From contig JBDTAC010000054.1 in assembly GCA_039924845.1 (NCBI GenBank), positions 41,308 to 105,307 on the forward strand: a DNA stretch of 64,000 bases, in the 5' to 3' direction. The notes beneath the pieces were generated by a model. It was not told the DNA's origin. It saw only the letters and a list, made by a program, of their open reading frames with translations, and made no database searches. Origin of the DNA: Bacteroidia bacterium. Lineage in GTDB: Bacteria > Bacteroidota > Bacteroidia > DATLTG01. Below are positions 38,863 through 57,728 of the stretch, in pieces (the first letter of the stretch is position 1; each line of letters starts with the position of its first letter). The translations under genes were made by a program, and so were the position numbers.

Positions 38863-39771
38863 TTACAATTCCAAGCTCAATGCCGCAATCGTGCTTCCGT
38901 AAAATTTGTATCTTATTTGTTGAGGCAGAATCTTAAACAAACTGGAATTTTCAATAAAATTAACAGAAAAATTTGACTTCAATATTTGATAAATTAGTTT
39001 ACGTAAAAAATTAATTTTATAATCCGTTTCTTTTTTGAAAAAGCTTTTATAATCTGGATTGTCTGCAAAAATTTTTTTTTTCGATTCGATATAACATCTT
39101 TGCCGTTTCGCATAATACCTTAACGTAATCTTATCATTATGAATAGATGTTATATTTAAATCAAAATACGATGGAATGTTTTTACACAAAGCGCGCAATC
39201 CAAATTCAAAATCATAACCATCTCTAAGTGTTTCATCAAAATTACCTATTGCTTCAAAAACTTCTTTTGTAAAAGACATATTAGCGGTAGTAATAACAAA
39301 ATTTTCAAAATTCACTTTTAAAGGCTCTGTTCCATTATTGGTAATTTTTTTCCACTCATTTTCCATGTGTATTTTATATTTCTCTATATCTGTTGAAATG
39401 GAATCTTGAACTGTATTTGCCGCACCAGATAATAAACATTGCGGATATTTTTCGTGATGTTCAATGTGTTTTTGAATCAAATTATCTGAAGCAATAATGT
39501 CGTCATCCAATAAAATTATCAAGCCTTCCTTTATTCTTGATAGCGCATTATTATTTGCTTTTGATGCTCCCGAATTTACTTGTGTATAAATATCTATCTT
39601 GTATGGATAAGTGTTTTTAATATGCTGGATTTTTTGAAAAGTATCATCCAGAGATCCGTCATCCATTACCAAAACATTAAAATTCGAACAAGTTTGATTT
39701 TTGAGCGAATCAAGTGTTTGGATTAATTTTCCAACGCGATTGTAAGTAGGAATTACAACAGTAATACTCAT
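38863..39771 (-). CDS. Glycosyltransferase family 2
   Basis: ITVVIPTYNRVGKL...VLVMDDGSLDDT; DDD motif. Confidence 0.85.
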   Translation of the reverse strand: MSITVVIPTYNRVGKLIQTLDSLKNQTCSNFNVLVMDDGSLDDTFQKIQHIKNTYPYKIDIYTQVNSGASKANNNALSRIKEGLIILLDDDIIASDNLIQKHIEHHEKYPQCLLSGAANTVQDSISTDIEKYKIHMENEWKKITNNGTEPLKVNFENFVITTANMSFTKEVFEAIGNFDETLRDGYDFEFGLRALCKNIPSYFDLNITSIHNDKITLRYYAKRQRCYIESKKKIFADNPDYKSFFKKETDYKINFLRKLIYQILKSNFSVNFIENSSLFKILPQQIRYKFYGSTIAALSLEL

Positions 39772-40781: not shown

Positions 40782-41656
40782 GATGCTGGGTATATAGTCG
40801 AATCAAAATTATTATCCGGTTTTTTAAACCACTTTTTAGGTGCTACAACAATTTTATTCGGATTTGTATTGAGCCATGCACCCCACCAAGAAAATGTGCT
40901 GTTGGCAATTATATTGTGCGAACAATTTTGCATTAAAAATAATTCTTCCACTTCCCCTAAATTTTCATGGCTGACAAAAATTGATTCGGTTTCAAATTTC
41001 AAATTTTCACGACACCACGCTATGTCGTCCGAAAAAATAAATATTCCAAAAGCATTTTCTTTGCTGTAATTTATTATATATTCTAATGCTTTATCGTAAT
41101 AATCGGAAGAAAGAATTGTGTAAAAGTGATTATATTTATTAATATAATCACCCCTTCTAACATGTACAGCAATTGAATTTTTATATTTTTTAATTTTACT
41201 TAACAGATCTTGTGCAAAAGGTGTTATTGTTTTTTTTAAATGCAAGTCTTGCCTTAACTGTATTTCAATTTCTTTAAAATACAAATATGATTGCCAAAAG
41301 CCTTCTAAATAAGAATTTACTGGAATTTTAACCATATTTGAATCAAAACCTTTTTTAGATTCGATAACGTAACTGTTTTTGTAATAGGGTAATAAATTCC
41401 TTTCCAGAAATCGTTTCAATTTGGAAACGATTTGCGGGTTTAAAATTTCTTCTGAAGATTGTATTCTTGGAATTTGCTGTATTGTAAACTCATCTAAATA
41501 TAAAACACGTTTTGTTGCTCCGGCACTTGTAAATTCAGAATCATAAAAAGATACATCAATAGCAATTTGTGCGTTTAATTTTTTCTTTATGCTTAACGCC
41601 AATGCGTACTGAAAAAGCTGATTTCCTAAGCCTCCTTGAAAACGAACTACAATCAT
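40766..41656 (-). CDS. Alpha-1,2-fucosyltransferase (GT11 family)
   Basis: N-terminal RFQGGLGNQLFQYA, the GT11 motif I hallmark; ~296 aa. Confidence 0.85.
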   Translation of the reverse strand: MIVVRFQGGLGNQLFQYALALSIKKKLNAQIAIDVSFYDSEFTSAGATKRVLYLDEFTIQQIPRIQSSEEILNPQIVSKLKRFLERNLLPYYKNSYVIESKKGFDSNMVKIPVNSYLEGFWQSYLYFKEIEIQLRQDLHLKKTITPFAQDLLSKIKKYKNSIAVHVRRGDYINKYNHFYTILSSDYYDKALEYIINYSKENAFGIFIFSDDIAWCRENLKFETESIFVSHENLGEVEELFLMQNCSHNIIANSTFSWWGAWLNTNPNKIVVAPKKWFKKPDNNFDSTIYPASWISL

Positions 41657-42408
41657 TTTTTACGAGCAAGTATGTGAAATCCGAAATTCAATAATTCTTC
41701 CGATCCTTTATTTTTTTTAGAAAATTTCACAAGCATTTTATACACAATTCCAATCGCTTTGCTTTCTATAAAAGATTTTTTTTGATTGGTATATTTTTCA
41801 GCTATCGAAGTCACCCTACTCATTTCCTGTTTTAAAAATTCGAAATAATTTCCATTGGCAGTAATTTCGAGAATTTCAAATTCATTTTCGATAAGGTGTT
41901 TTTCATAAAAATATTTATTAAACCCTGAATAATAATGGTAAGGTGCAAAATGAGTCATACTGCAAAAAGGCGCAGTAATAATTAAATAGCCTCCTTTTTT
42001 TAATAATCTGTCAAATTCTTTAATGGCAGCAATCGGATTCGGTATATGTTCAAAGACTTCTGTACACATAATAGCATCAAAACTTTTGTCTGGCTCAGGA
42101 ATATCAACAATATCCGAAACAATATCCAATTTCCCATAATCCCATTGATGCATTTGCAAGCCATTTTTGACTTCATCAGGTTTGTATTGGGCAAAATCTT
42201 GCGACATATAATTTAAATGTGCACAAAAATTTTTAAACTGCTGTTCTCCTGCACCTGCATCAAGAATACGCAAACCGGAAGGGATTTTTTCCAATGTTTT
42301 TTTTAACCAAACAACTCGATTAATCTCATTTATATTATTTTGTTGATCATCCATGATTTTCCCATTTATTCTTTTTAACAAAAATTGTGTTGATGTAAGT
42401 ATCAGCAT
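41653..42408 (-). CDS. Class I SAM-dependent methyltransferase
   Basis: Motif I LRILDAGAGEQQF and a downstream acidic motif (IVSDIVDIPEPD). The true start may be the internal MDDQQ. Confidence 0.7.
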   Translation of the reverse strand: MLILTSTQFLLKRINGKIMDDQQNNINEINRVVWLKKTLEKIPSGLRILDAGAGEQQFKNFCAHLNYMSQDFAQYKPDEVKNGLQMHQWDYGKLDIVSDIVDIPEPDKSFDAIMCTEVFEHIPNPIAAIKEFDRLLKKGGYLIITAPFCSMTHFAPYHYYSGFNKYFYEKHLIENEFEILEITANGNYFEFLKQEMSRVTSIAEKYTNQKKSFIESKAIGIVYKMLVKFSKKNKGSEELLNFGFHILARKK

Positions 42409-43078
42409 ATACTATGTATCCTTGCTGTTCCAAAAAGCTAATAATATTATCGTTTTTTATACCTTTTCCTTTTTCCGAAAATGAAATTGTTTCGACGCAA
42501 ATAACTATTGGATAATTACTTTTATAATTAATCGAGTGCAATATTTCATCATCCATCCCTTCAACATCTAATGATAAAAAATCCGGAAATATACCATTGT
42601 GATAAATTTCTATAATATTTTTTAAAGTACTTATTTTAATTTTTTCCTTTCCAATAATTTTATAGCCATTTTCCTTTTGATATTCCTCCGCAGCTTCTTT
42701 AGAAAAGGTGTTAAGGGAGGATGCGGACAATTTGTAATAATCTAAATTTCCTTCTTTCAAACCAATACCAATATTCAAATTAATATCTTTTTGTCGAGAT
42801 TTTTTAAACAATTTTATAGATTCAGGATTTGGTTCAATATTAATTCCTCGGCTTCCTAACTTATAAAAAATAGCTGTATTATTAATATGAAAAGGATGGT
42901 GTGCCCCTATATCAATATAAGAAGGTTTATTAATTCCAATGGTATCAAAAATAAATTTCATGATTAAATCCTCTCCAGACTGAGAATAGGATCTTTTCAC
43001 AAATAATTCTTTAACTGTTTTCTTAAATAATGACATTATTTTTAAAAATATTTTATTTTTCAACTTGATTGTAGTCAA
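42347..43078 (-). CDS. FkbM-family methyltransferase (probable)
   Basis: YIDIGAHHPFHINNTAIFYKLGSRGINIEPNP resembles the FkbM-domain N-terminus. It is a paralog of the adjacent gene. Confidence 0.6.
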   Translation of the reverse strand: MTTIKLKNKIFLKIMSLFKKTVKELFVKRSYSQSGEDLIMKFIFDTIGINKPSYIDIGAHHPFHINNTAIFYKLGSRGINIEPNPESIKLFKKSRQKDINLNIGIGLKEGNLDYYKLSASSLNTFSKEAAEEYQKENGYKIIGKEKIKISTLKNIIEIYHNGIFPDFLSLDVEGMDDEILHSINYKSNYPIVICVETISFSEKGKGIKNDNIISFLEQQGYIVYADTYINTIFVKKNKWENHG

Positions 43079-43775
43079 TTTTATTTACATATAACTGATC
43101 TCCAAAAGATTGAGAACATTCGTTTTTATAAAGAAAAAAATTATTCTGATGCATATATTTTTCGATATCCTTCTTTAAACCTTGTTTTTTATAAAGTTCT
43201 ATGGTAGAAACCTCTAACCAAATAACTTTAATTTTATTGATCATTTGAGAAGCACCTTCCAATACTTTTAATTCTGCCCCTTGCACATCCATGTGCACAA
43301 AATCAATTCTTTCGATATTATTTTTTTTACAAAAAGCATTTATCGTATTCGCGTTGACTTCTATCGTTTTATTGAATTTTAGCCAAGCATGCGTTTGATT
43401 AACCTTTTTCGGTGGGAGTATTGAACTAGATTTATTGCCATAATTCCAATCTTCTTCTTTTTCAATATTATCAGGTATTCCTGATGACACATAAAAATTT
43501 ATTTTTCCAATTGTATCTGATAATGCTTCTTCAATTATTTTTACATGAAGTTTATCATAAGTTTTAAAATTCTTTTTTATCAACTTGATATTTTCCGGAT
43601 TCGGTTCAAATGAATAAATGTCAGCTTTTGGAAAAAGATTGGCATATCTGATAGAATCTTCACCCTCACAAGCCCCAACATCAAAAACAATTAATTTGTC
43701 TTCCGAATTAAATAATCTGAGAAGCTCGCTTTTTATAGGAATATCCGAATTTATATATTCACTTCGATCGCTCAT
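43053..43775 (-). CDS. FkbM-family methyltransferase
   Basis: FDVGACEGEDSIRYANLFPKADIYSFEPNPEN, the characteristic FkbM pattern. Confidence 0.75.
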   Translation of the reverse strand: MSDRSEYINSDIPIKSELLRLFNSEDKLIVFDVGACEGEDSIRYANLFPKADIYSFEPNPENIKLIKKNFKTYDKLHVKIIEEALSDTIGKINFYVSSGIPDNIEKEEDWNYGNKSSSILPPKKVNQTHAWLKFNKTIEVNANTINAFCKKNNIERIDFVHMDVQGAELKVLEGASQMINKIKVIWLEVSTIELYKKQGLKKDIEKYMHQNNFFLYKNECSQSFGDQLYVNKIDYNQVEK

Positions 43776-44977
43776 TCCTGTAGTATTTTATTGTTCATCC
43801 AGTCCGAATCGCAATTAATAAGTCCGGTATTATTTTCAATATAATTTTTCGTCCCGTAATTTAAAATTTCTAATTGAGACACGTCTGAATTATGATAATA
43901 ATTAAAATTGCCATTTGCAACCCCAATTGATAGGATATAAAGACCGGCTCTTAAATTGTGATTTATTTTAGTACCCACTTCCAATATGTCGCCCGTATTC
44001 ATATTCGCTTTCTCATTATTTCGTACTGTAAAAACGGGTGTATAATCGGAGGTTGTTAAGCCCAAGCCAATGGATACATTTTGTAGCTTTTCTTTCGCTT
44101 TAATCACTATTTTTATTTCAATGGTTTGATCAAATTCTATAACAAAACTATTTTCAACCGCATTTAGTAATTCAATAGATTCGAGATGAATAAATTTATT
44201 GAGACCATCTTGAAAAAAAATTTTTGAAGGACTTTCAATTTTAAAATTCAAATAATTATTAATTATTTTGACGGATTCGCCCTTTTCTTTCACTTGTCCT
44301 TTCTCTAAATATATAACTTGAGAGCATAATTGTTTTACGGCTCCCATATTGTGACTTACAAATAAAATCGTTCTGCCGCTTTTGCTCACTTCGTCCATTT
44401 TGAGCATACATTTTTTTTGAAACTCAGCATCGCCAACCGCTAGCACTTCATCAATAATTAAAATCTCATTTTCTAAAAATGCAGCTACGGCAAAAGCTAA
44501 ACGTAATTGCATTCCGCTACTGTAATGTTTTAAAGGCGTGTCAATAAATTTTTGAACGCCTGAAAAATCAACAATCGCATCAAAATTTTTCTGAATTTCA
44601 GCACGTTTCATTCCTAAAATAGAACCATTTAAAAAAACATTTTCTCTGCCAGAAAGTTCTGGATGAAAACCTGTTCCTACTTCCAATAAACTGGCAATTC
44701 TACCTCGAGAAATTATTTTTCCAGAAGTGGGTGGAGTAATTTTGGAAAGTATTTTCAAAAGAGTAGATTTTCCTGCTCCATTTTTTCCAATAATTCCAAT
44801 GCTTTCGCCTTGCATCACATCAAAATTGACATTTTTTAAGGCAAGAAAATCTTCTCTTTTATTTTTATTCTTCTGAAAAAAAGTACCAAGGGAATCACGC
44901 AAACTTAAATAAGCTTGCTTTTCGTCTTCTATGCGAAATTTTTTTGAGATGTTTTGTATTTCTATAATCGGCTTCAA
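43772..44977 (-). CDS. wzt: Polysaccharide ABC exporter ATP-binding protein (Wzt/KpsT-like) with ~150-aa C-terminal extension
   Basis: Walker A GKNGAGKST, the LSGGMQ-like signature YSSGMQLR, and Walker B ILIIDEV. The C-terminal beta-rich extension fits a glycan-terminus-binding domain. Confidence 0.85.
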   Translation of the reverse strand: MKPIIEIQNISKKFRIEDEKQAYLSLRDSLGTFFQKNKNKREDFLALKNVNFDVMQGESIGIIGKNGAGKSTLLKILSKITPPTSGKIISRGRIASLLEVGTGFHPELSGRENVFLNGSILGMKRAEIQKNFDAIVDFSGVQKFIDTPLKHYSSGMQLRLAFAVAAFLENEILIIDEVLAVGDAEFQKKCMLKMDEVSKSGRTILFVSHNMGAVKQLCSQVIYLEKGQVKEKGESVKIINNYLNFKIESPSKIFFQDGLNKFIHLESIELLNAVENSFVIEFDQTIEIKIVIKAKEKLQNVSIGLGLTTSDYTPVFTVRNNEKANMNTGDILEVGTKINHNLRAGLYILSIGVANGNFNYYHNSDVSQLEILNYGTKNYIENNTGLINCDSDWMNNKILQE

Positions 44978-44999
44978 AAAATAATTTTTTTTAATGTCA

Positions 45000-46190
45000 T
45001 TACAAAGACCAATTTAATAGTGGAAGGTTTTCTTTTTTTAGGTCATTCAAACTGCCAAAGTCAATCTTATTCTCTTTGCAAAAAGATTCGATTATATATC
45101 TCACCTGAACATTATTTCCTTTGTTAATAATAAATTTGATATAAGATTTCAAAGAATGTTCTCCGTAAATTTTCAAAATATAATTCAAACTTTTATGAAG
45201 TGAATATAAATTATCTTGCGTTAAATTAATCGCGTATAAATAGAATAAGGTGATTTCCTTTTTTACTTCTAATCGCTGTGCCCACAAGGTCAGCATAAAT
45301 GACAATCTTTTTGATTCAAAGGATTTTAAATTCCACGCCACTATTTTTTCGTCTATTTTTTGCACCAAACTTTCAAAAGTTTCTTTTTCATAAGCTTGTT
45401 GTTTCGCATGATCGTCAATTTGCTTAAAAATTTGAATGCTTTTTTTTATCAATTTATCAGAATCAATGGCAGGGACATCAAGAAAATATTTTTCAAGTTC
45501 TTCAACACTAAGCGTACCTTCATACATAATTGGAGAACTTGTAAAGCGGAAGACCAATGCCATAGTAACATCATTCTTGATATTCTGTAATCCTTCGTGA
45601 TCTGTATTCCCCAGCCAAAGCAAAAACTCACCAAGTTTTAAATCAGGCTTAACAGTCTTTTTTAACGAATGTAAAAAAGTAGCTACAATCTTTATTTTTT
45701 TTATAATTTTTCTCATCAAAAAATTATCTTTCTTGTGTGTTTTTTCGATAATACTTATCGGTTGATAAGTGCATTCATTTAAGGGAGTCCAAGTGGTATA
45801 AAAATGCTTAATGTAATCATATCCGTCTTTATGTTCTGGACCAATTTCCGAAGTGTCAAAAGGAAAATGAATTATTGGGTAAGGAAGTGTACAAAAGTTT
45901 ATTTCAGAGGATAATTGGTATGTGCTTTTTAATTTTTGGCAAATAGATTTAGCAAGTTTTATGCTAGACGGATCGTATCTCAAGAAAGATCTTACAATTG
46001 CTTTTACAAGTTCTATATACTCTATTAAATTATCATCAAATGTCGAAATAGAAACATGAAACTCTTTTTGAACTTCTAACAACGTTGTTTGTAAAAAATA
46101 ATTTTTCCTCTCAAGTAATAAGCTAAATATTTCCTTCTGAAGTTCATGTTCAGCCGAAGACCAGCCATATTTTTTCAATCTCGTTTCCAT
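45000..46190 (-). CDS. Hypothetical protein (396 aa) inserted between wzt and wzm
   Basis: No recognisable motif and no TM segment. The ORF is continuous and co-oriented within the operon. Confidence 0.5.
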   Translation of the reverse strand: METRLKKYGWSSAEHELQKEIFSLLLERKNYFLQTTLLEVQKEFHVSISTFDDNLIEYIELVKAIVRSFLRYDPSSIKLAKSICQKLKSTYQLSSEINFCTLPYPIIHFPFDTSEIGPEHKDGYDYIKHFYTTWTPLNECTYQPISIIEKTHKKDNFLMRKIIKKIKIVATFLHSLKKTVKPDLKLGEFLLWLGNTDHEGLQNIKNDVTMALVFRFTSSPIMYEGTLSVEELEKYFLDVPAIDSDKLIKKSIQIFKQIDDHAKQQAYEKETFESLVQKIDEKIVAWNLKSFESKRLSFMLTLWAQRLEVKKEITLFYLYAINLTQDNLYSLHKSLNYILKIYGEHSLKSYIKFIINKGNNVQVRYIIESFCKENKIDFGSLNDLKKENLPLLNWSL

Positions 46191-46194
46191 CCTT

Positions 46195-47013
46195 TTATGC
46201 TAAATCGGCAAAATAACTTTCTGTTTTCCTGAAATAAAATAATCCAATTATAAATAAAATAAAAGATGAACAAATACTGATAAATATTAAATTCATGTTC
46301 AACGGTTGCGTTACAATTGCATTCCGAAACAATTCAATAGCGGCATACATCGGATTTAATGCCATTATATATTTCATCCATTGATGCGTTAGAATAGAAA
46401 CCGGATAAATGACGGGAGTTAAAAACAAAAGTGCTTGTACTAAAAACGGAATGATGTAACGAAAATCTCGGTATTTGATATTTAAAGCTGCCAAAAATGA
46501 ACCTAAACCAAAAGTGGAAATACTTGCAATAACTAATCCTGCCGGAATAAAAACGATAAATTTTAAAACAGCTACCTGCGTATGAAAATACAAGAGTATT
46601 CCGATAAAAATCAGGAAACTCATTAAAAAATCGAACAAAGCAACTAATACCGCAGAAACTGGGATAATTAATCTCGGAAAATAAATCTTTTTGATAATAT
46701 TCGCATTGTTTATCATACTATTTCCAGCAGCGGTCAAGCCGGATGCAAAAACATTCCACAGCAACAATCCGGAAAAAACAAAAACAGGATAAGGTAAATT
46801 TTCGGATGGTACTTTTAAAGCTCTTCCAAAAAAAACGGAAAAGATAATCATCATAAAAAAAGGTTGTAAAACTGCCCACAGAAAACCTAAAACAGTTTGT
46901 TTGTATTTTACTTTTATATCGCGCCAAGTAAAAAAATAAAACAACTCTCGATATTGCCAAAGTTCAGCAATACCAAGGCTTAATTTTTCTTTTGGTTTTA
47001 TTTCGTATTCCAT
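46195..47013 (-). CDS. wzm: Polysaccharide ABC exporter permease (ABC-2, Wzm/KpsM-like)
   Basis: WQYRELFYFFTWRDIKVKYKQTVLGFLWAVLQP N-terminal motif and 6 TM. Confidence 0.85.
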   Translation of the reverse strand: MEYEIKPKEKLSLGIAELWQYRELFYFFTWRDIKVKYKQTVLGFLWAVLQPFFMMIIFSVFFGRALKVPSENLPYPVFVFSGLLLWNVFASGLTAAGNSMINNANIIKKIYFPRLIIPVSAVLVALFDFLMSFLIFIGILLYFHTQVAVLKFIVFIPAGLVIASISTFGLGSFLAALNIKYRDFRYIIPFLVQALLFLTPVIYPVSILTHQWMKYIMALNPMYAAIELFRNAIVTQPLNMNLIFISICSSFILFIIGLFYFRKTESYFADLA

Positions 47014-47014
47014 T

Positions 47015-47902
47015 TTATTTATTCCAAAATGCTAAATCTTTACCTATCATTTTTGACAATTCTTCGTTATACGGCTTATAAAATTCGAGTAAAAAGGTGC
47101 GCACATCCTCATCCATTGAAAGATGCTTTTCATTTATCTTATTTATTTTTCGTAAAGCTTCTCCATAATGATAAGAAGCGTGTCCAGAAATTAATTTTTT
47201 CAATCCCTTTTTTAAAGGGTTTTCATTGTGCAATAATCGTCTTAAAACGCGCGCATACAAAAATGAGCGTGTTTTTTGTGTGGGATTATAAATCACAGTT
47301 ACATTCGGCACAAAATGATCATCCACATTTATTTTTTTGAATATTTTTTCACAAATGTTTTTCGCATCTTTTTTTAAATCTTCGTAGAAAAGTAAGGTAA
47401 CTTGTTCTTTCGAGAAATAGTGATAAATATTTTTCAAATGCTTCTCGTACAAACTGTAATCAATAAAATAATCGAAACCCCAATAGAGTTCTTCGTCTTT
47501 GTGTTTTGTATATAAATCGGGTAAATCAGAAAATTCAAATTTGGCAGAACCTGCATTTTTTTCCATCAAATAGGAGGAATACGTACGCTCTACCGGATTT
47601 CGCATGATAAAAACAATTTCGCATTTCGGATTGTGCTCTTTCAAACGAATCAAGGCTTCTTCATTCGCATATAGATTTGCATTCTTGCAAATTAATTTTG
47701 TTTCTTCGGTATATTCTTGATGCGAAAAAAAAGTTTTCAATGCCTTCTCAAAACCACGACTGTATTCTTTATCATCATAAAAATAACTAAATTCTTTTTG
47801 GGAATGGCACAAACACGCAGGATGCTCTCCAAGATAGCGCAACAAGGAAGAAGTACCTGACTTTTGAGCTCCCACTATCATCACATCAATTTTTCTCTCC
47901 AT
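47015..47902 (-). CDS. PAPS-dependent sulfotransferase
   Basis: 5-prime-PSB motif GAQKSGTSSL and 3-prime-PB-like motif FIMRNPVERTYSSY, the sulfotransferase fold signatures. Confidence 0.8.
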   Translation of the reverse strand: MERKIDVMIVGAQKSGTSSLLRYLGEHPACLCHSQKEFSYFYDDKEYSRGFEKALKTFFSHQEYTEETKLICKNANLYANEEALIRLKEHNPKCEIVFIMRNPVERTYSSYLMEKNAGSAKFEFSDLPDLYTKHKDEELYWGFDYFIDYSLYEKHLKNIYHYFSKEQVTLLFYEDLKKDAKNICEKIFKKINVDDHFVPNVTVIYNPTQKTRSFLYARVLRRLLHNENPLKKGLKKLISGHASYHYGEALRKINKINEKHLSMDEDVRTFLLEFYKPYNEELSKMIGKDLAFWNK

Positions 47903-47972: not shown

Positions 47973-48566
47973 ATGGAATTCGTTTTTGCCAGCGGCAACA
48001 AAGATAAAATAAAAGAAGCACGTTTACTGATTTCATCTCAAGTAAAAATTTTAAGTTTAACGGATATTTTTTGTACAGGAGATATTCCTGAAACATCTGA
48101 TACCATTGAAGGGAATGCGCTACAAAAAGCAAATTATGTGTTTGAGAAATACGGCTACAATTGTTTTTCAGACGATACGGGCTTGGAAATTGAAGCTTTA
48201 AACGGAAAACCAGGCACTTTTTCGGCTCGTTATGCGGGCAATGAAAAAAATACAGAAGCAAATATCCAAAAAGTATTGTTCGATCTGAATGAAATAAATA
48301 ATCGAAAAGCGCGTTTCAAAACCGCTATTGCGTTAATTATGGGTGATGAAAAAATAATTTTTGAAGGCATTGTTACAGGTACTATTTTAAGTGAAAAGCG
48401 CGGTAATAATGGCTTTGGTTACGATCCGATTTTTGTGCCTGATGGATACGATAAAACATTTTCCGAAATGAGCCTTCTCGAAAAAAATAAATTGAGTCAC
48501 CGTGCAAAGGCTTTTCAAAAACTGATGAATTATTTGAATGAACACGCTCATTTTGCTTCAAAATAA
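47973..48566 (+). CDS. rdgB: Non-canonical purine NTP pyrophosphatase (RdgB/Ham1 ITPase)
   Basis: MEFVFASGNKDKIKE...FGYDPIFVPDGYDKTFSEMSLLEKNKLSHRAKA. Confidence 0.9.
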   Translation: MEFVFASGNKDKIKEARLLISSQVKILSLTDIFCTGDIPETSDTIEGNALQKANYVFEKYGYNCFSDDTGLEIEALNGKPGTFSARYAGNEKNTEANIQKVLFDLNEINNRKARFKTAIALIMGDEKIIFEGIVTGTILSEKRGNNGFGYDPIFVPDGYDKTFSEMSLLEKNKLSHRAKAFQKLMNYLNEHAHFASK

Positions 48567-48603: not shown

Positions 48604-51315
48604 ATGAAAATGAAGATTGGAATTATTTTTGGAGGCTTTTCAAAAGAGCGTGAAATTTCTTTTGCAGGTGGCAGAACGGTTTACGACAATCTGAATAAAT
48701 CCTTATTTGAGCCGATTCCTATTTTTATTGACAGTTTTGGAAATTTTATTTTGCTCGATTGGCAATATGTTTACAAAGGCAGCATTCGCGATTTTTATCC
48801 GCCCGCCGAATTAATTCCAAAAAAAGAAGGCGGTTTTCAAATTTATGCCGAAAGTTTAGGCAATTTGAATTCGCAACAGCAAGAAGAATTGATTTTAAAA
48901 ATTGGAAAAAAAATTCTGATAGACGAATTAAAAAATATTTTCGATTTTGCTTTTTTGTGTTTGCACGGACCTTACGGAGAAGATGGGAAAATTCAAGGTT
49001 TGTTCGAATCGCTTGGCATTCCGTATTCTGGATCTGGCATACTTCCTTCTGCCATTGGCATTGATAAAGCAATCCAAAAAAAGCTGATGAAAAATGCCGG
49101 ATTTCCTTCTCCAAAATTCGGAATTATTAAAAAAGAAGAGTGGCTAAAAACGCTCGACAAAAAATATTTTTTCGAAAAATTAAAAAAAGAAATTGGTGAC
49201 AATATCGTTGTGAAATCTGTTTCACAAGGTTCTTCTATCGGCATTTCTGTTTTACAAAAATCTAATTTTGATGATTTTATAAAAGCCGTAAATAAAAGTT
49301 TTTTCATCACAGATATTTCTATGTCTGAATGGAGAAAAATGGACGATGCACAAAAAAATGTTTTTGTGCGCACACTTACAGATATTCGCGAAGGCATTGG
49401 AATTCCTGTGAGAATAGCAAATTCATCTTCAAAAATTTCGGACATTATTTATCATCCGCAAGATTTAATTTTTCATCTCAATAAAATTTCTGCTACCGAA
49501 AAAAATATTTTGCTGGAGTCTTTGGACGGCGAACATTTATCGCTCATCGAAGAATTTATTTCTGGAAAAGAATTTTCCTGCATCGTTTTACAAAATGAAG
49601 ATGGAAATGCAGTTGCATTGCCGCCTACAGAAATAATAAAAGGTGGAGAATTGTTCGATTATCGTTCGAAATATTTGCCCGGTTTATCTCGAAAAATTAC
49701 GCCCATTAATTTACCCGATTCGCAAATTCAGGAAATTCGCAAAGCTTGTGAACATCTTTTTACCGAATTTAATTTTGATGTGTATGCGCGAATTGATGGA
49801 TTTATAAATGAAAAAGGCGTTATTTATTTGAATGATCCGAATACGACTTCGGGAATGATGCCATCTTCTTTTTTCTTTCATCAAGCAGCTGAAATTGGAT
49901 TAAATCCTTCTCAATTTTTAACTTTTATTATTCGCACTTCGCTTTCGCAACGGGCATTATCAACAAAAAACAGTTTAGTAATTACAAAATTACTAAGGCA
50001 TTTAGACGAAGAAATAAAACATCAAAAAAATGCTTCTACAGAAAAAATAAAAGTCGCAGTTATTTTAGGCGGCTATTCTTCGGAGCGACATATTTCGGTG
50101 GAAAGTGGTCGGAATATTTATGAAAAATTAGCGTCATCTTCCAAATACAAACCTGTTCCGATTTTCCTTACGAGGAATGAAAATGAACACATCATGTATC
50201 GCATTCCAGTGAATATTTTGTTGAAAGATAATGCAGATGATATCAAGGAAAAAATTGCACATTATAAAATTCATCCGATTGTAAAAAAAATAATGGAAGA
50301 ATGTGTCGCTATTACTGAAAAATATGGTGAATCTGGAAGTTTAGATCATCCAGAAAAATTAAATTATTCTGATTTACCAAAGTTGGCGGATGTTGTCTTT
50401 ATTGCGCTGCATGGTCGTCCGGGCGAAGATGGAGCGGTGCAAGAAAAACTCGAAAAAATAAATTTGCCTTACAACGGTTCTGATACAAGTAGCTCGCAAA
50501 TTACAATTGATAAATTTCGCACCAATGAAATTTTAAAAGAAAATGGATTTTTAATTGCCGAGCATTTGTTGGTTTCTAAAAATGACTGGAATACTAATAA
50601 AAATGAAGTGCTGGAAAACATCCGTCAAAAAATTAATTTTCCATTCATCGCAAAACCAGTAGATGACGGGTGCAGTTCTGCCGTCAAAAAAATAAAAAAC
50701 GAAAAAGAGTTGGAAGCCTTTGCCACATTGATTTTCAGAAACTCAGAAGAATTTAATAAAAATGCTGCCGAAACGCTTCATATAAAAGTAAAAGAAGAAT
50801 TCCCTCAAAAAAATATTTTTTTGATTGAAGAATTAATCTCGAAAAAAGATGCTCCTCATTTTTTAGAAATTACTGGCGGAATGCTCACCAAATATGATAG
50901 AAATGGAAATGTTGAATATGAAGTTTTTGAAGCATCAGAAGCTTTAAGCGAAGGAGAAGTTTTATCCTTGGAAGAAAAATTTTTGGCGGGACAAGGTCAA
51001 AACATAACACCTGCAAGGTATTCTGTGAATTATGAAGATCGAAAAAAAATTTCTGAGAAGGTAAAAAACACACTTGGTGCTGCGGCAAAACTATTGCACA
51101 TCAATGGTTATACGCGCATTGATGCCTTTGTTCGAATTTACAATCCTGACAAAGTTGAAGTTATTTTTATAGAAGTGAATTCATTGCCGGGCATGACTCC
51201 CGCTACGTGTATTTTTCATCAAGCGGCAATTAATAATTACAAGCCGTATGATTTTATTGATAAAATAATTGATTTTGCATTCGCGAAAAAAAAGAAAGAA
51301 TTACAAACTAATTAA
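48604..51315 (+). CDS. ddl: Tandem-duplicated D-alanine--D-alanine ligase-like protein (two Ddl/ATP-grasp modules in one 903-aa polypeptide)
   Basis: Module 1 starts MKIGIIFGGFSKEREISFAGGRTVYDNL and module 2 restarts KIKVAVILGGYSSERHISVESGRNIYEKL. Both have the Ddl N-terminal pattern (hGxxxGGxSxEhxhSxxSG) followed by ATP-grasp regions. Module 2 ends with NSLPGMTP, as in Ddl. Confidence 0.75.
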   Translation: MKMKIGIIFGGFSKEREISFAGGRTVYDNLNKSLFEPIPIFIDSFGNFILLDWQYVYKGSIRDFYPPAELIPKKEGGFQIYAESLGNLNSQQQEELILKIGKKILIDELKNIFDFAFLCLHGPYGEDGKIQGLFESLGIPYSGSGILPSAIGIDKAIQKKLMKNAGFPSPKFGIIKKEEWLKTLDKKYFFEKLKKEIGDNIVVKSVSQGSSIGISVLQKSNFDDFIKAVNKSFFITDISMSEWRKMDDAQKNVFVRTLTDIREGIGIPVRIANSSSKISDIIYHPQDLIFHLNKISATEKNILLESLDGEHLSLIEEFISGKEFSCIVLQNEDGNAVALPPTEIIKGGELFDYRSKYLPGLSRKITPINLPDSQIQEIRKACEHLFTEFNFDVYARIDGFINEKGVIYLNDPNTTSGMMPSSFFFHQAAEIGLNPSQFLTFIIRTSLSQRALSTKNSLVITKLLRHLDEEIKHQKNASTEKIKVAVILGGYSSERHISVESGRNIYEKLASSSKYKPVPIFLTRNENEHIMYRIPVNILLKDNADDIKEKIAHYKIHPIVKKIMEECVAITEKYGESGSLDHPEKLNYSDLPKLADVVFIALHGRPGEDGAVQEKLEKINLPYNGSDTSSSQITIDKFRTNEILKENGFLIAEHLLVSKNDWNTNKNEVLENIRQKINFPFIAKPVDDGCSSAVKKIKNEKELEAFATLIFRNSEEFNKNAAETLHIKVKEEFPQKNIFLIEELISKKDAPHFLEITGGMLTKYDRNGNVEYEVFEASEALSEGEVLSLEEKFLAGQGQNITPARYSVNYEDRKKISEKVKNTLGAAAKLLHINGYTRIDAFVRIYNPDKVEVIFIEVNSLPGMTPATCIFHQAAINNYKPYDFIDKIIDFAFAKKKKELQTN

Positions 51316-51323: not shown

Positions 51324-52130
51324 ATGAGTGTTATTGATTTTATAAAAAGTAAAACATTTTTTAAACATCTCGCCTTAGCGATTGTATTGGTAAGTGTTTT
51401 GCTTTGGGGAGTTTTGCAAATATTGGACACGTATACCTTGCACAATCAATCCATTACCGTACCTGATTTTAGCGGATTAAAAACACAAGAAATTGATCAT
51501 TTTATTTCCGATAAAAATCTTCATTATACCGTTATTGATTCCGTGTATGATGCAAAATCTCCGAAAGGAATTGTGATTAAACAAGAACCGGAAAAAGGCA
51601 TTCAAGTTAAAAAAGGAAGAACGATTTATTTATACGTTACGTCGATTTTACCTCCACAAATAGAAATGCCGAAACTCACAGATCAATCGCTGCGCCAAGC
51701 AGCTTCCGTGATTGAAACTTACGGTTTGAAAATGGGAAAAATAAAATACGTTCCCGATGTATGCGCCAATTGTATTTTGAAACAACTCAATAATGGAAAA
51801 GAAATAGAAGCCGGCACAAAAATTCCAAAAGGTTCGGTGATTGATTTAGTTGTGGGAAAAGGATTGGGCGATGAAGAAGTGGCTATTCCAAATCTTATCG
51901 GACTCACCAAACAGCAAGCACTTGCTAAATTGGCAGAAAGTTCCTTAAATGAAGGTGCGCTTGTGTTCGATGCGCCTGTTGATTCTGCGAGAGAAAAAAT
52001 ATACATGCAGAAACCTAGTTATTCCTCTTCTGCAACATTAAATATCGGGAGTCCGATTGATCTTTTTTTTACGAACGACAACAGTAAAATTCCTGTTGTT
52101 AAACAAGACACCATTTCTAACGCTGAATAA
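51324..52130 (+). CDS. PASTA-domain protein
   Basis: N-terminal TM followed by three PASTA-like repeats (VPDFSGL...; MPKLTDQSL...; IPNLIGLTKQQA...). Confidence 0.75.
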   Translation: MSVIDFIKSKTFFKHLALAIVLVSVLLWGVLQILDTYTLHNQSITVPDFSGLKTQEIDHFISDKNLHYTVIDSVYDAKSPKGIVIKQEPEKGIQVKKGRTIYLYVTSILPPQIEMPKLTDQSLRQAASVIETYGLKMGKIKYVPDVCANCILKQLNNGKEIEAGTKIPKGSVIDLVVGKGLGDEEVAIPNLIGLTKQQALAKLAESSLNEGALVFDAPVDSAREKIYMQKPSYSSSATLNIGSPIDLFFTNDNSKIPVVKQDTISNAE

Positions 52131-54275: not shown

Positions 54276-55145
54276 TTAAACGGTATCCATGAAATTTTTT
54301 TCGGTTCTGTTGAATAATAAAACTCCGAAGAAAAGGATTATTAACATAAAAATACTGCTGTAAGCCAAATACAGCCAGTGAAATTCGCCTTTCGGAAAAA
54401 AGGCATAACGAAATGTTTCTACAATCGAACTCATCGGATTGGCAAGTACTACCATTCTAAATTTGGTATCTTTTACTAAAGATAATGGATAAACAACTGG
54501 TGTGGCATACATTATTAATTGAACGCCAAAACCTACGAGGTACGTCAAATCGCGGTATTTAGTTGTTAAAGACGAAATAATAATTCCGAAACCGAGTCCT
54601 AAACCGCCCATTATCACAATGAGATACGGAATTAGTAACATGTACATATTGAAATGAAAAGAAATACTTTTGAATAAAATAAAATAAATAAATACAAGAA
54701 TAAAAAGTAAAAATTGTATCATTAAACTAATCATACTACTGATGATGGAAGAGACTGGGGCAGCCAATCGCGGAAAATAAACTTTCCCGAAAATAGCAGC
54801 ATTGGCAAGGAATGTAGAAGATGTTTTATTAAAACAGGTTGCAAAATAATTCCAAACCGTTAAACCGGAAAGGTAAAATAAGGCGCCAGGAATACCATCC
54901 GTCGGAATTTTAGCAATGCCTCCAAAAACAACCATAAACATAATGGTAGTGAGAATGGGTTGAATGACAAACCATGCTGGACCTAAAATAGTTTGTTTGT
55001 AAACGGAAACAAAATCTCTACGAACAAAAAGCATGATTAAATCTCGGTAACGCCAAACATCCGACAAGTGTAAATCAAACCATCCAGAAGTTGGTTTCAC
55101 TACCAAAGACCATTCTTCGTTTCCTTCTATTTTTTTATCCTCCAT
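54276..55145 (-). CDS. ABC-2 type polysaccharide-export permease (second Wzm/KpsM paralog)
   Basis: SGWFDLHLSDVWRYRDLIMLFVRRDFVSVYKQTILGPAWFVIQP, the Wzm/KpsM N-terminal motif, and 6 TM. There is no adjacent ATPase. Confidence 0.8.
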   Translation of the reverse strand: MEDKKIEGNEEWSLVVKPTSGWFDLHLSDVWRYRDLIMLFVRRDFVSVYKQTILGPAWFVIQPILTTIMFMVVFGGIAKIPTDGIPGALFYLSGLTVWNYFATCFNKTSSTFLANAAIFGKVYFPRLAAPVSSIISSMISLMIQFLLFILVFIYFILFKSISFHFNMYMLLIPYLIVIMGGLGLGFGIIISSLTTKYRDLTYLVGFGVQLIMYATPVVYPLSLVKDTKFRMVVLANPMSSIVETFRYAFFPKGEFHWLYLAYSSIFMLIILFFGVLLFNRTEKNFMDTV

Positions 55146-55162
55146 AAATTGTGTCCGAAAAA

Positions 55163-57526
55163 TTATTTTTTATCGCCGTAACCGTAGTTGCCTCCATAAC
55201 CGTATCCATAGCCGTAACCATAAGCATAACGGTTGTAATAATATTTTGATTTTTTACGTTTCACCCCGTTTAAAACGATGCCCAAATTATTGATTTTATT
55301 ATTGGTTACAATTTCATGCGCATTTGCAATGGATTCTTTGTAAGCAGATTTGGTATTAATCACATACAAATTAACATTTGCATATTTCATCAATGCAAGT
55401 GCATCGGAAATCAAACCGACAGGAGGAGTATCAATAATTATATAATCATAGTGCGCTTTTCCGTATTCGAATATTTCATTCATACGTTTAGAAAGAATTA
55501 ATTCGGAAGCATTCGGAGGTAGAGGACCCGATAAAAGCACATCTAAATTGTCGATGCTACTTTTCAGAATACATTCTTGTATAGTATTTTTTCCAATGAT
55601 AATGGTTGAAATACCTATTTCGGATGACATATTCAAGGCTTTGTGTACGCGCGGTTTGTGTAAATCTAACTCTAATAACAATACTTTTCGCTCCGATTTA
55701 GCCAAAATAGTTGCTAAATTAACGGAGCAAAAAGTTTTTCCTTCCCCCGGAACATTGGAAGTGATGAGAATTACTTTTGAACCTCCCTCGGTATCCATGT
55801 ATTGTAAATTGGTACGAATGGTTCGGAAGGATTCTATTATCGGCGATTTCGGATTATTTTCAACAGTAACGAGGATATCTTTTACGCTTTGATCAAATAA
55901 AATTTCTCCCAATATGGGTAAATCCGTTTTTTCTTTTAGCTCTTCTATACTTTCTATTTTTTCGAAAAATACGGTTCTAATAAAAATAATAATAAGACTT
56001 ATGATAGCGCCAACCCCCATAAACATATAACTTATTTTTGATTTTTGAGGCGCAACAACGCCCATGGAACGAGCAGTTTCAATCACTTCTGTTTCAGGGA
56101 TAATAGTAGCTTGGGCAATAGTAGTATTGGCTCTTTTTTGCAATAAAAACTCGTACATATTTTCATTTACTTGCATATTTCGCTCAATATCCACAAGTCC
56201 TCTTTGTTTGGCAGGAATGGTTTTTATGCTGCTTACATAAGCATCTACTTGTCCATTTACATCCTTAATTTGCGAATTCAATGCTACTCTAGAATTTCCG
56301 ATATAAATCAGCAAATTATTTTTCAATAATTTTATTTTTTCATTGGCATTTCTAATATTTTGATTTTTTTCAGTGGCATCCGTCAAAGTAGAATTAATGG
56401 AAATTTGCATACTGTACAATTCATCCACACTTTTTTTCAAAAAAGCATCGTTGCTGACAATATAAACAGCGGGGGGTAGAAATTCCGGATCTTTATTTTC
56501 AATAATGTATTTCTCTAAGGCGTCCAACGCTCCAATTTGCATTTGCAGCATGGATTTTGTCTTATCAAAATCACTCAATTTAGTAAAATAATCATCTTCT
56601 TCTTTTCCAAGATCTAAAATATTTTTGTTTTCCTTGTAATGTTGTAAATCATTTTGCACGCTGTCCAAAATGGTACTAACTTCTGCCATCTGCTTATCAA
56701 TATAGAAAAGCGTATTAGCATTTATTTTAATTTTGGATTTCAAAGAATTTTCCATGTATACTTCCGCGAGTGTATCCAAAAAAGCAATGGCTCTTTCTGG
56801 AACATTGTCTCGGAGACTTACTTGAAGAATATTTGTATAATCAATGATTGCAACGCTTAGAGCACCTCTATAACGATATACCAAGTTTTTCGGATTGTGT
56901 ATTTTTATCGTATAATCGGAGTTTTCTAAACTTCTTATTGTATTTCGATTGACTTGAGGAGATTTTGTAACTAATAATTTCATATCACTATTCACCGAAA
57001 ACTCATCAAACGTTCCGACAAATTTTTGCTCTTGATCGCCTTCGGTATAAGTAATTTGGTATTGGTGTACATTCAAAATTTTGAAATGCATCATATTTTC
57101 GTACAAACCCGAATTGATGTTTCCTACTTGTATTTTAAACGGAGAACCATCATACATTTCGCGAGAAGCAAATCTCCCTACAATAAAATACGAAATACCC
57201 AAATTCATCCTATCTACAGCTTTTTGAATAAGATCATAGGATTGCAAGACACGTAATTCGTTGGTGTTATCTACATAAGTTTGTCCAGATCCATAATATC
57301 CTCCAGCTCCTTCTGAAGAAATTAAATTTTTCGAATCGAAATTATCGTTTTTTAGCAAAATTTCGGTTTCTGCCGAATAAACATCTGGTATTTTGTATAA
57401 GTACACTTGCGAAATAACAAATGCCGCGGCTACTAAACAGACTAAAATATACCAGTTTTTAGAAAAAATCCGCAAAACGGCTTTTATATCCTGTATATCA
57501 ATGATAGCATTATTTTTTTGCGCCAT
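55163..57526 (-). CDS. wzc: Polysaccharide co-polymerase / BY tyrosine kinase (Wzc-like) with C-terminal Tyr cluster
   Basis: Two TM segments flank a large Wzz-like periplasmic domain. P-loop ITSNVPGEGKT, Walker B YIIIDTPP, and C-terminal tail YYYNRYAYGYGYGYGYGGNYGYG. The start is trimmed to the ATG at 57526. Confidence 0.85.
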   Translation of the reverse strand: MAQKNNAIIDIQDIKAVLRIFSKNWYILVCLVAAAFVISQVYLYKIPDVYSAETEILLKNDNFDSKNLISSEGAGGYYGSGQTYVDNTNELRVLQSYDLIQKAVDRMNLGISYFIVGRFASREMYDGSPFKIQVGNINSGLYENMMHFKILNVHQYQITYTEGDQEQKFVGTFDEFSVNSDMKLLVTKSPQVNRNTIRSLENSDYTIKIHNPKNLVYRYRGALSVAIIDYTNILQVSLRDNVPERAIAFLDTLAEVYMENSLKSKIKINANTLFYIDKQMAEVSTILDSVQNDLQHYKENKNILDLGKEEDDYFTKLSDFDKTKSMLQMQIGALDALEKYIIENKDPEFLPPAVYIVSNDAFLKKSVDELYSMQISINSTLTDATEKNQNIRNANEKIKLLKNNLLIYIGNSRVALNSQIKDVNGQVDAYVSSIKTIPAKQRGLVDIERNMQVNENMYEFLLQKRANTTIAQATIIPETEVIETARSMGVVAPQKSKISYMFMGVGAIISLIIIFIRTVFFEKIESIEELKEKTDLPILGEILFDQSVKDILVTVENNPKSPIIESFRTIRTNLQYMDTEGGSKVILITSNVPGEGKTFCSVNLATILAKSERKVLLLELDLHKPRVHKALNMSSEIGISTIIIGKNTIQECILKSSIDNLDVLLSGPLPPNASELILSKRMNEIFEYGKAHYDYIIIDTPPVGLISDALALMKYANVNLYVINTKSAYKESIANAHEIVTNNKINNLGIVLNGVKRKKSKYYYNRYAYGYGYGYGYGGNYGYGDKK

Positions 57527-57728
57527 ATTTCTCAATCAATTTTGCAGAGAGTATTTTCTTTTAAAGGATGAAAATAAGCGACAAATTTAAACATAAAATG
57601 ATAGTGTGTTAATAAATAATTTGTCGAATGCAAAAATAATAAGAAACTTTATTTGGTGAAATATCGTAAATACATTTGGATTTTCGAAATTACTTAGTTA
57701 TATTTGCAACACTTAAAAACGTAATATT

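Follow-up and report, generated by a model that had tools for sequence, protein, structure and literature searches.

A predicted peptidoglycan D-Ala-D-Ala ligase made of two unequal Ddl modules in one chain in uncultured Bacteroidia

We found that one gene of a Bacteroidia bacterium encodes two complete Ddl modules in a single 903-residue protein (residues 1-454 and 481-903, with a helical linker between them), and that the two modules carry different, strictly conserved active-site residues. Canonical Ddl is one ATP-grasp module, and knowledge of the enzyme comes almost entirely from single-module homodimers. In the reading that we prefer, to which we assign a probability of roughly 0.55, the peptidoglycan D-Ala-D-Ala ligase here joins two Ddl paralogues of ancient divergence covalently, as a pseudo-heterodimer that takes the place of the usual Ddl homodimer. 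Table 1 lists the features within the window, by which we mean the whole stretch of 64,000 nucleotides that was analyzed.

Table 1. Coordinates of the two-module ddl gene, its parts and the adjoining PASTA gene in the window
Feature	Position	Strand	Remarks
Two-module Ddl (N module, linker, C module)	48604..51315	+	Complete ORF, 903 aa + stop
N module, residues 1-454	48604..49965	+	Complete Ddl; profile, PDB and residue matches
N-module insertion, 72 aa, residues 236-307	49309..49524	+	Bacteroidia-specific, central domain
N-module omega loop, residues 347-363, GGELFDYRSKYLPGLSR	49642..49692	+	Canonical F-D-Y-x-x-K-Y type
Codon D411 (GAT)	49834..49836	+	Asp at DdlB Mg ligand E270, 121/121
Inter-module linker, residues 455-480	49966..50043	+	Predicted part of long helix
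C module, residues 481-903	50044..51312	+	Complete Ddl; altered second-substrate subsite
Codon C690 (TGC)	50671..50673	+	Cys at DdlB triad S150, 121/121
C-module omega loop, residues 779-801, EALSEGEVLSLEEKFLAGQGQNI	50938..51006	+	Almost wholly invariant
Codon F793 (TTT)	50980-50982	+	Phe at DdlB Y216, within C-module omega loop
Codons T868-C869	51205..51210	+	DdlB S281 = Thr (invariant); DdlB L282 = Cys
PASTA protein, 268 aa	51324..52130	+	PASTA E = 2e-26; begins 8 nt past ddl stop

The reading frame runs unbroken from ATG to TAA. Pfam placed Dala_Dala_lig_N twice in the protein (best stretch, residues 4-144) and Dala_Dala_lig_C in four stretches (E = 4e-50 and 4e-51). Searched singly, each half matched only Ddl models and Ddl/Van structures (NCBIfam, Pfam and PDB). 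The N half scored 219 bits on the NCBIfam Ddl model and reached 3e-39 against the PDB, and the C half scored 156 bits and reached 1e-21, with best matches that were all Ddl/Van. Each half lies below the curated NCBIfam Ddl cutoffs (219, 215 and 206 bits against 262, 243 and 246 for the N half; 156 bits against 243-262 for the C half), and the whole protein, at 362 bits, lies above them because the scores of both modules sum. The two halves are 25% identical over their full length (E = 7e-30). An AF2 model of the 903-residue protein had a pLDDT of 81 and a pTM of 0.82. Its top Foldseek matches were all Ddl, VanA, VanG or LmDdl2 (TM to target ~0.8), with LmDdl2 (1ehi) among them, and the first non-Ddl match, at rank 33, was CarB, the large subunit of carbamoyl-phosphate synthetase (1bxr_A; TMq 0.42). 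CarB also carries two homologous, diverged ATP-grasp modules in one chain, but it belongs to another ATP-grasp family and performs two successive phosphorylations with a tunnel, and the two-module Ddl gave no sign of sequential chemistry.

These matches bear out the first-pass annotation, which had described two complete Ddl modules in one protein; it had also reported the N-terminal signature twice, as Pfam did, although the second copy begins at residue ~483 and not at ~470. A refuting outcome that it had named, a second module from a non-Ddl ATP-grasp family, was rejected by the NCBIfam, Pfam, PDB and fold matches. Its remark that both modules are longer than canonical Ddl was also borne out. 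Residues 65-93, 236-307 and 460-474 have no counterpart in compact relatives of ~800 residues, and the C module has ~25 extra residues ahead of its 'LIEE' motif relative to DdlB. The segment 236-307 has an invariant motif of its own (D260-I-R-E-G264...P268) and returned no Pfam match. Scans for promoters and terminators over 47.7-54.5 kb stayed at chance level; they used the sigma-70 consensus, which does not apply to Bacteroidota.

Among species-representative Bacteroidia genomes, at least 541 encode a full-length two-module relative. The architecture recurs in more than 120 protein clusters, and metagenomes supply it in thousands of proteins. The fusion, whose spread the annotation had wanted checked, is widespread. 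The compact form of ~800 residues occurs in CPR bacteria. In a neighbor-joining tree with module boundaries defined by BLAST, the N modules of both phyla clustered together, as did the C modules, which suggests a single origin for the two-module Ddl of Bacteroidia and CPR bacteria. No second, single-module ddl was found in 1.59 Mb of flanking sequence (10 kb to either side of related loci).

The idea that the long reading frame is an artefact of assembly or gene calling that joins two adjacent ddl genes has a natural precedent, in that one lineage has a real two-gene version. In L087/L088, the N-like gene (477 aa) and the C-like gene (425 aa) behind it stand apart, with 139 nt between them that contain stops in all frames, and a PASTA gene comes after the second; the N-like product retains GSS...NDPNT and the C-like product GCS...EEKF. 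The cut falls in the linker, the least conserved segment of the fused protein (0.44 identity). We nevertheless see next to no chance of an artefact, given the continuous frame in the window and the fusion with its conserved helical linker across the genomes and metagenome proteins counted above; the number of clusters and species-representative genomes that share the full-length architecture excludes an assembly error, which the annotation had raised. A further candidate for a split gene encoding only the C module, P0179, was rejected, as a contig end truncates it.

We mapped active-site residues onto Escherichia coli DdlB and counted invariance over 121 close relatives. The mapping of the halves to DdlB was anchored by motifs; MAFFT had put the 'LIEE' region of the C module in the wrong place. 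In the N module, the triad E15/S210/Y357 is the canonical E-S-Y of D-Ala:D-Ala ligases and is invariant (121/121). The ATP residues K155, K204, E316 and E323 are present and invariant, as are K356, R396 and S422 (DdlB K215, R255 and S281; 121/121), H121 and S211, and the Mg-ligand positions D398, D411 and N413. D411 is Asp in every catalytic-class representative, the CPR class included, which suggests a conservative and invariant replacement of E270 in place of drift. In the AF2 model, the omega loop of this module is a lid of low pLDDT.

The C module keeps all of its ATP and Mg residues (K637, K684, E742, E755, D840, E857 and N859, all invariant), together with E494, K792 and R838; H603 and S691 are likewise invariant in the 121 relatives. 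Its triad reads E494/C690/F793, not E-S-Y, and it has T868 at the position of DdlB S281, again without exception in the 121 relatives. A shifted register that would keep Ser at S150 was discarded, since the spacing to K684 and the downstream K696-I697 fit the ungapped register. The position of DdlB L282 varies across the family (Cys, Val, Ala or Ile). Nearly every full-length representative of the catalytic class, down to an identity of ~34% and CPR bacteria included, carries both module signatures; P0243 alone departs clearly from the C signature, having Ser in place of both C690 and T868, and C690 is Cys in all the others. Alignment of each half to DdlB, which the annotation had proposed, thus found the ATP residues kept in both modules, with E270D in the N module and S150C, Y216F and S281T in the C module. 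Canonical Ddl (E. coli DdlB and DdlA, and others) has the same three-domain ATP-grasp fold, the same ATP residues and a dimeric working unit, but it is a homodimer of a ~306-364-residue chain with two identical sites, whereas the sites of the two-module protein are unequal and fixed in one chain.

The architecture itself is not new, as it has already been published for plant DDL. The proteins of Arabidopsis (At3g08840), Physcomitrella (PpDDL, BAE45860) and rice (BAF22630) likewise consist of one chain with two DDL modules, and the published description is of a gene that fuses two putative DDL enzymes and is found throughout the plant lineage. Moss Ddl is closest to homologues from the FCB group (Bacteroidetes), and the plant family has been listed as a horizontal acquisition from Chlamydiae/CFB bacteria. 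The two-module DDL is needed for plastid peptidoglycan in moss, where UDP-MurNAc-pentapeptide has the canonical D-Ala-D-Ala form. The two-module Bacteroidia Ddl is probably the bacterial counterpart of the plant double DDL, which differs in being eukaryotic, in acting in plastid division in moss and in having no PASTA partner. Literature searches found no published account of a bacterial double Ddl, nor any that covers the conserved difference between the N and C modules, the coupling to PASTA or the derived pseudoenzymes described below.

One suggestion of the annotation was a single active ligase accompanied by a degenerate copy with a regulatory role. This fits poorly with our data, in which the ATP residues and Mg-ligand positions are invariant in both modules across the 121 relatives, and the conservation of the ATP-binding residues suggests that neither module is degenerate in the catalytic family. 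A related possibility is that the N module is the sole ligase and that the C module is an ATP-binding, non-ligating partner that stabilizes or regulates the N module or docks to MurF or PASTA. The C module has neither hydroxyl of the triad positions S150 and Y216, its lid is unlike the canonical FYDYxxKY, and by the bit scores and E values given above it is more divergent from Ddl models and structures than the N module. Moreover, in four pseudoenzyme relatives (P0159, P0170, P0182 and P0183), the C module retains only the nucleotide/Mg set and has lost the substrate-binding residues, so a C module that binds nucleotide but does not ligate can persist; and moss precursors end in D-Ala-D-Ala only. 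However, in the catalytic family the C module keeps E494, K792, R838 and a near-invariant 23-residue lid, whose sole relevance is to the binding of substrate and the chemistry of the acyl phosphate. The C module is also constrained at least as much as the N module (mean identity 0.74 versus 0.68, with 178 of 417 columns invariant in the C module), and ligase activity is present in DdlB Y216F and in Ddls that naturally have Phe there. We therefore consider a sole N-module ligase unlikely, while leaving it an appreciable chance.

The converse arrangement, with the C module as the main D-Ala-D-Ala ligase, paired with the N module as a regulatory or low-activity partner through the change of E270 to Asp, appears improbable to us. 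Every member of the catalytic class does have D411 instead of E270, D/E/N are intact in the C module, and Arabidopsis T-DNA lines able to express only the C-terminal DDL module show normal plastids, for which the Arabidopsis authors suggested residual activity of that module. This inference from Arabidopsis is indirect, however, the Asp is conservative and invariant, and the N module retains a complete D-Ala:D-Ala signature with a canonical lid.

A PASTA-domain protein follows the gene, as the annotation had noted. It has a short cytoplasmic tail, one transmembrane helix (~11-37) and PASTA repeats outside the membrane, and it matches the PASTA region of PknB at 3e-27. Among 80 related loci, a PASTA gene lay directly downstream of the two-module ddl in 25-26; none was detected in about two thirds, some of which had little or no downstream sequence. 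The link is stronger than the annotation had it, because some relatives fuse PASTA to the ligase: the catalytic residues are intact in the Ddl-Ddl-TM-PASTA fusions P0122, P0125 and P0126. These fusions copy the layout of PknB/Stk1, with a cytoplasmic enzyme, one transmembrane helix and outer PASTA repeats, but the enzyme is a ligase pair and not a kinase, and in the window PASTA is a separate gene. A search with the PASTA protein for cultured Bacteroidota with a single ddl beside PASTA returned only close relatives from the same lineage.

Other neighbors belong to precursor synthesis and division. P0258 is a Ddl-Ddl-MurF fusion, the tail of which scored 323 bits on TIGR01143 (cutoff 288.6); it adjoins MurL, a MurD2-like ligase and a Mur-ligase-Alr fusion. 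Chlamydial MurC-Ddl offers a precedent for joining Ddl to a Mur ligase (NCBIfam model NF011171, MurC/Ddl). CPR two-module copies adjoin alanine racemase and FtsA, or lie near a PBP and VanW. Taken with the split form, the TM-PASTA and MurF fusions suggest an N:C pair that would work in peptidoglycan precursor synthesis, coupled to the PASTA protein. Synthesis of D-Ala-D-Ala by the whole protein is a prediction from sequence, with indirect support from the MurF fusion, the Alr/FtsA/Mur context and the plant DDL phenotype.

The residues of the C module raise the question of its product. Ddls whose only product is D-Ala-D-Ala conserve S150 and Y216. Substitutions at these triad positions give DdlB weak D-Ala-D-Lac activity, DdlB Y216F is a depsipeptide ligase, and Phe is natural there in lactobacilli. 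Through F793, the C module carries at Y216 one of the two residues (Phe or His) that mark Van- and LmDdl2-type D-Ala:D-Lac ligases. It shares this Phe with the Phe-type ligases LmDdl2 (F261) and Lactobacillus reuteri Ddl (F258) and with the DdlB Y216F mutant, and it resembles the DdlB S150A mutant in having no S150 hydroxyl; both changes give DdlB depsipeptide activity and occur naturally in LmDdl2. It differs from the Phe-type ligases in having Cys, and not Ala or Ser, at S150, Thr at S281 and another lid sequence, and in belonging to a diderm lineage without vancomycin-resistance gene context. On curated models, it scored 99.7 bits for D-Ala-D-Lac ligases (NCBIfam D_ala_D_lac; cutoff 550) and 112 bits for VanG (cutoff 495).

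Two ligases of different specificity, the other proposal of the annotation, would thus be compatible with the residues (E/S/Y in the N module; E/C/F and S281T in the C module). It is doubtful that the modules make different products for different fates, such as D-Ala-D-Ala destined for peptidoglycan while a second pathway receives a D-Ala-D-hydroxyacid or another D-aminoacyl product. The differences at the triad and at the S281/L282 subsite are fixed across phyla, and substitutions at the same positions shift the product spectra of DdlB and LmDdl2. Against this, the 80 loci contained no D-lactate dehydrogenase, serine racemase or dipeptidase gene linked to the two-module ddl, and no VanH-type dehydrogenase, VanX dipeptidase or VanT racemase appeared among their recurrent neighbors or in the window. 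The fusion of Ddl-Ddl to a single MurF suggests one downstream acceptor, and the D-Ala-D-Ala ends of moss precursors argue against a D-Lac-terminated precursor, if plant DDL shares the signature.

Under the covalent-pair reading, turnover would take place at both active sites. The N module, which has the E/S/Y triad, would act strictly as a D-Ala:D-Ala ligase. In the C module, which has E/C/F, Thr at S281 and a lid both distinct and invariant, D-Ala would bind in subsite 1 and the second subsite would be relaxed or shifted; we liken this module to the Phe-type ligases of lactic acid bacteria, and it would probably still make D-Ala-D-Ala and may take another D-substrate such as D-lactate. Solved Ddl structures repeatedly show a dimer, and the pTM of the model and analogy suggest that the two modules may pack like such a homodimer. 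The cytoplasmic two-module enzyme would act jointly with the membrane-anchored PASTA protein encoded just downstream, which could anchor dipeptide synthesis where the wall is made, or adjust it there. Several points speak against this reading. The change of E270 to Asp could weaken Mg binding, and the N module may not be the workhorse; the C module, which lacks the hydroxyls of two triad positions, could ligate poorly; each half scores under the curated Ddl cutoffs; and PASTA was not detected downstream in about two thirds of the loci.

A bolder version makes the protein an obligate, asymmetric heterodimer that is conserved across Bacteroidia, CPR bacteria and plant plastids. Its C module would make a product other than D-Ala-D-Ala, for instance a D-Ala-D-hydroxyacid or a different D-aminoacyl dipeptide, or would be an ATP-driven regulator of the N module, and the output would be set by a PASTA sensor that monitors the wall from the outer side of the membrane. 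We regard this as a long shot. If it were true, much bacterial diversity would build or regulate the terminus of the stem peptide outside the E. coli model.

Ddl is an essential enzyme, the target of the antibiotic D-cycloserine and the decision point of vancomycin resistance. A great many uncultured Bacteroidia and CPR bacteria have a two-module form instead of the single-module one. Its active sites have stayed unequal for a very long time, and it is tied, physically or genetically, to a PASTA wall-sensing module. The plant authors leave unsettled which half of DDL, if either, is active. The bacterial double Ddl offers that field a concrete model, and the residue map (K204 and D411 in the N module; C690 and F793 in the C module) makes the question of the active half directly testable.

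The open reading frame (ORF) of the double Ddl runs from ATG to TAA without interruption and encodes 903 aa. Pfam placed two Dala_Dala_lig_N domains and Dala_Dala_lig_C in four stretches on the protein (E = 4e-50 and 4e-51). Searched alone against NCBIfam, the N half (residues 1-459) and the C half (residues 460-903) matched only Ddl models, at 219 and 156 bits, respectively; the curated Ddl cutoffs are 243-262 bits, so that single halves fall below them and only the summed halves exceed them. Ddl, VanA and VanG chains were the sole matches to either half among solved structures (best E-values of 3e-39 and 1e-21 for the N and C halves, respectively), and the halves could be aligned with one another over their whole length (25% identity, E = 7e-30). 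These results bear out the first-pass annotation, which had seen two complete Ddl modules in one protein. An origin of the second module in a non-Ddl ATP-grasp family is ruled out, as the C half alone matches Ddl models only. The AF2 model was confident (pLDDT 81.3, pTM 0.82), with disorder confined to two lids and a long helix entering the inter-module linker. The central domain of the N module carries a Bacteroidia-specific 72-aa insertion with its own invariant motif (W243, D260-I-R-E-G264, P268, P285, L288); it has a predicted alpha/beta fold and no family match, and is missing from the compact CPR class described below.

Features of the double Ddl locus and related loci (window positions unless a locus is named)
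Feature	Position	Strand	Remark
First polysaccharide block	33677-47902	(-)	
Wzt	43772-44977	(-)	
396-aa ORF	45000-46190	(-)	no family match
Wzm	46195-47013	(-)	
Sulfotransferase	47015-47902	(-)	
Ham1/RdgB	47973..48566	(+)	upstream neighbour of double Ddl
Double Ddl	48604..51315	(+)	
72-aa insertion	49309-49524		residues 236-307
PASTA protein	51324..52130	(+)	E = 2e-26; single N-terminal TM helix
T9SS-sorted protein, 657 aa	52133..54106	(+)	downstream of PASTA gene
Second polysaccharide block	54276-57535	(-)	
Split form	L087:5001-8671		JGI 3300060288
Split form	L088:2481-6151		JGI 3300060282
P0214	L092:8001-11618		Haliscomenobacter MBK7477711.1
P0258 cluster	L083:485-9939		Logan SRR22346077

Full-coverage relatives (66-71% identity, about 895-950 aa) made up over 120 clusters in a protein search; they come from Bacteroidia/Bacteroidota MAGs and are named D-alanine--D-alanine ligase by NCBI. 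With each species represented by a single genome, at least 541 genomes encoded a relative; the best 80 of these matches span essentially the whole protein, all are from uncultured organisms and most are labelled Bacteroidia or Bacteroidota. The fusion is thus lineage-wide, and the recurrence of the same full-length protein rules out an assembly artefact joining two genes. An exhaustive search on 50%-identity representatives yielded 609 at E < 1e-30, with the two-module build persisting to about 30% identity. A compact class of about 800 aa (34% identity, 2584 proteins at E < 1e-30), mostly called 'hypothetical protein' by NCBI, came from Peregrinibacteria, Patescibacteria and Moranbacteria (CPR) and from MAGs labelled Bdellovibrionota or Deltaproteobacteria. 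Within this large family, which already goes by the name Ddl in databases, the double Ddl is unexceptional. Eight species-representative MAGs with the Bacteroidia gene (L004, L032, L045, L048, L063, L069, L073 and L080) are labelled Chitinophaga pinensis, Synechococcus, Saccharibacteria or Akkermansia and are probably mislabelled or contaminated bins. One 987-aa relative (P0254) has a GNAT acetyltransferase domain fused ahead of a double Ddl with intact catalytic residues.

We mapped the catalytic residues of both modules against Escherichia coli DdlB (L001).

Active-site residues of the two modules
DdlB	N module	C module
E15	E15	E494
H63	H121	H603
K97	K155	K637
K144	K204	K684
S150	S210	C690 (changed)
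S151	S211	S691
E180	E316	E742
E187	E323	E755
K215	K356	K792
Y216	Y357	F793 (changed)
R255	R396	R838
D257	D398	D840
E270	D411 (changed)	E857
N272	N413	N859
S281	S422	T868 (changed)

All 15 positions were invariant in both modules across 121 close relatives. Almost every full-length representative of the catalytic class, with the CPR class and every fusion variant among them, shared the N and C signatures; only P0243 clearly departed from them, with Ser in place of both C690 and T868. Residues 779-801, the lid of the C module, were invariant almost throughout, and this module was slightly more conserved than its N counterpart (mean identities of 0.74 and 0.68; 178 of 417 versus 175 of 454 columns invariant). 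Judged by these residues, the two active sites differ, each is fixed and neither module is degenerate, because a degenerate copy would drift and the C module shows no drift. This argues against one of the two earlier proposals, an active ligase with a degenerate copy; the other, two ligases of different specificity, is favoured from sequence inference.

In DdlB, Y216, E15 and S150 form a hydrogen-bonded triad, and Y216F converts the enzyme into a depsipeptide ligase; lactobacilli and Leuconostoc naturally have Phe at this position (PMC3378904), as does the C module. Ddls that make only D-Ala-D-Ala conserve S150 and Y216, and introducing the Phe and Ala of LmDdl2 into DdlB gave weak D-Ala-D-Lac activity (PMC7691350). 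The C module is therefore naturally substituted at precisely these two sites, and further carries Thr at S281 and a small residue at L282. VanC/VanG-type D-Ser ligases have Arg at the L282-equivalent position. The C module scored 100-112 bits against curated Van or D-Lac models (cutoffs 495-550), and no VanH-, VanX- or VanT-like gene was linked to the double Ddl among 80 related loci; we therefore did not file it in those families and describe it as a putative Phe-type ligase of relaxed specificity.

In a neighbor-joining (NJ) tree, the N modules clustered across Bacteroidia and CPR-type proteins (bootstrap 50), as did the C modules (bootstrap 74), and N plus C separated at 83 from the outgroups, E. 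coli DdlA and DdlB; the support is moderate and the sampling of outgroups thin. Derived characters agree with this grouping (E270D in N; S150C, Y216F and S281T in C). A single old duplication probably produced both modules. Six contigs (L087, L088) carry a natural split form: an N-like gene (477 aa, keeping GSS...NDPNT), a 139-nt spacer with stops in every frame, a C-like gene with its own start (425 aa, keeping GCS...EEKF) and an overlapping PASTA gene. The split pair nests within the fused Bacteroidia clade in the NJ tree, pointing to secondary fission. Solved Ddls share a recurrent dimer, and the fusion is most simply read as a covalent N:C heterodimer.

The Ham1/RdgB, double Ddl, PASTA and T9SS-sorted protein genes run in the same direction, separated by 37, 8 and 2 nt; the PASTA gene noticed earlier, which starts 8 nt past the ddl stop, was confirmed. 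PASTA lies directly downstream of the double Ddl in 25-26 of 80 related loci. The 657-aa protein has a T9SS C-terminal sorting domain and otherwise no family match, and keeps its place after PASTA in about 25 of 80. Two polysaccharide biosynthesis/export blocks flank the ddl-PASTA pair: GT2 glycosyltransferases and a methyltransferase lie in the first, along with Wzt, Wzm, a sulfotransferase and the 396-aa ORF, and the second contains a further ABC-2 permease and a Wzc-like BY-kinase with a terminal YGYGYGYG tail. At about 36-46 kb, within the first block, GC content is 0.28-0.31; elsewhere in the window it is roughly 0.31-0.39.

Several relatives (P0122, P0125 and P0126) are Ddl-Ddl-linker-TM-PASTA fusions with intact catalytic residues, a layout shared with PknB-type PASTA kinases that predicts a cytoplasmic ligase and PASTA repeats outside the membrane. 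A set of Ddl-Ddl-TM-PASTA proteins of about 1200 aa (P0159, P0170, P0172, P0173, P0180, P0182, P0183, P0195, P0199, P0214, annotated 'PASTA domain-containing protein', and P0215) keeps the N-then-C order and has lost the catalytic residues from both modules. Four of these proteins still have the nucleotide/Mg-binding set in the C module, but neither the substrate-binding residues of that module nor any of the N-module site. These proteins appear to be a pseudoenzyme branch, and their lack of catalytic residues shows that a double-Ddl body can persist, in a putatively non-catalytic role, after attachment to PASTA. They are the main support for a regulatory alternative, in which only the N module ligates and the C module is an ATP-binding, non-ligating partner; in the double Ddl itself, the fixed C-module residues favour two ligases.

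A compact-class relative (P0258, 1262 aa) is a Ddl-Ddl-MurF fusion whose tail passes the curated murF model (323 bits, cutoff 288.6). Its co-directional cluster comprises MurL, a MurD2-like Mur ligase, P0258 and an 876-aa Mur-ligase-alanine-racemase fusion; these four genes, two of them fusions, hold much of stem-peptide synthesis. CPR copies adjoin alanine racemase and FtsA or sit near PBP and VanW, and neither the window nor 1.59 Mb of related-locus flanks contained a second Ddl-like gene. Taken together, these results place the double Ddl, by gene fusion and context, in peptidoglycan precursor synthesis.

The two-module architecture is already published for plants: At-DDL and its Physcomitrella homologue each come from a gene that fuses two putative DDL enzymes, an arrangement present across the plant lineage (PMC9954125). 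By the same account, ligase function is still to be established for the C-terminal half of AtDDL, and even for the protein as a whole. The plant fusion, as described, thus shares its build with the bacterial double Ddl. The closest reported homologues of moss Ddl are from the FCB group, moss precursors are the canonical pentapeptide, and in Yue et al. the family is among those acquired from Chlamydiae/CFB bacteria. Given the plant fusion, the FCB closeness and this origin, the double Ddl is best regarded as a typical bacterial representative of a lineage that was probably the donor of plant DDL. The literature searched, with most subscription journals outside it, yielded no description of a bacterial two-module Ddl, the fixed active-site asymmetry, the PASTA coupling or pseudoenzyme derivatives. 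Both the conserved difference between the sites and the link to PASTA are specific and testable, and they are relevant to whether the halves of plant DDL are functional ligases.
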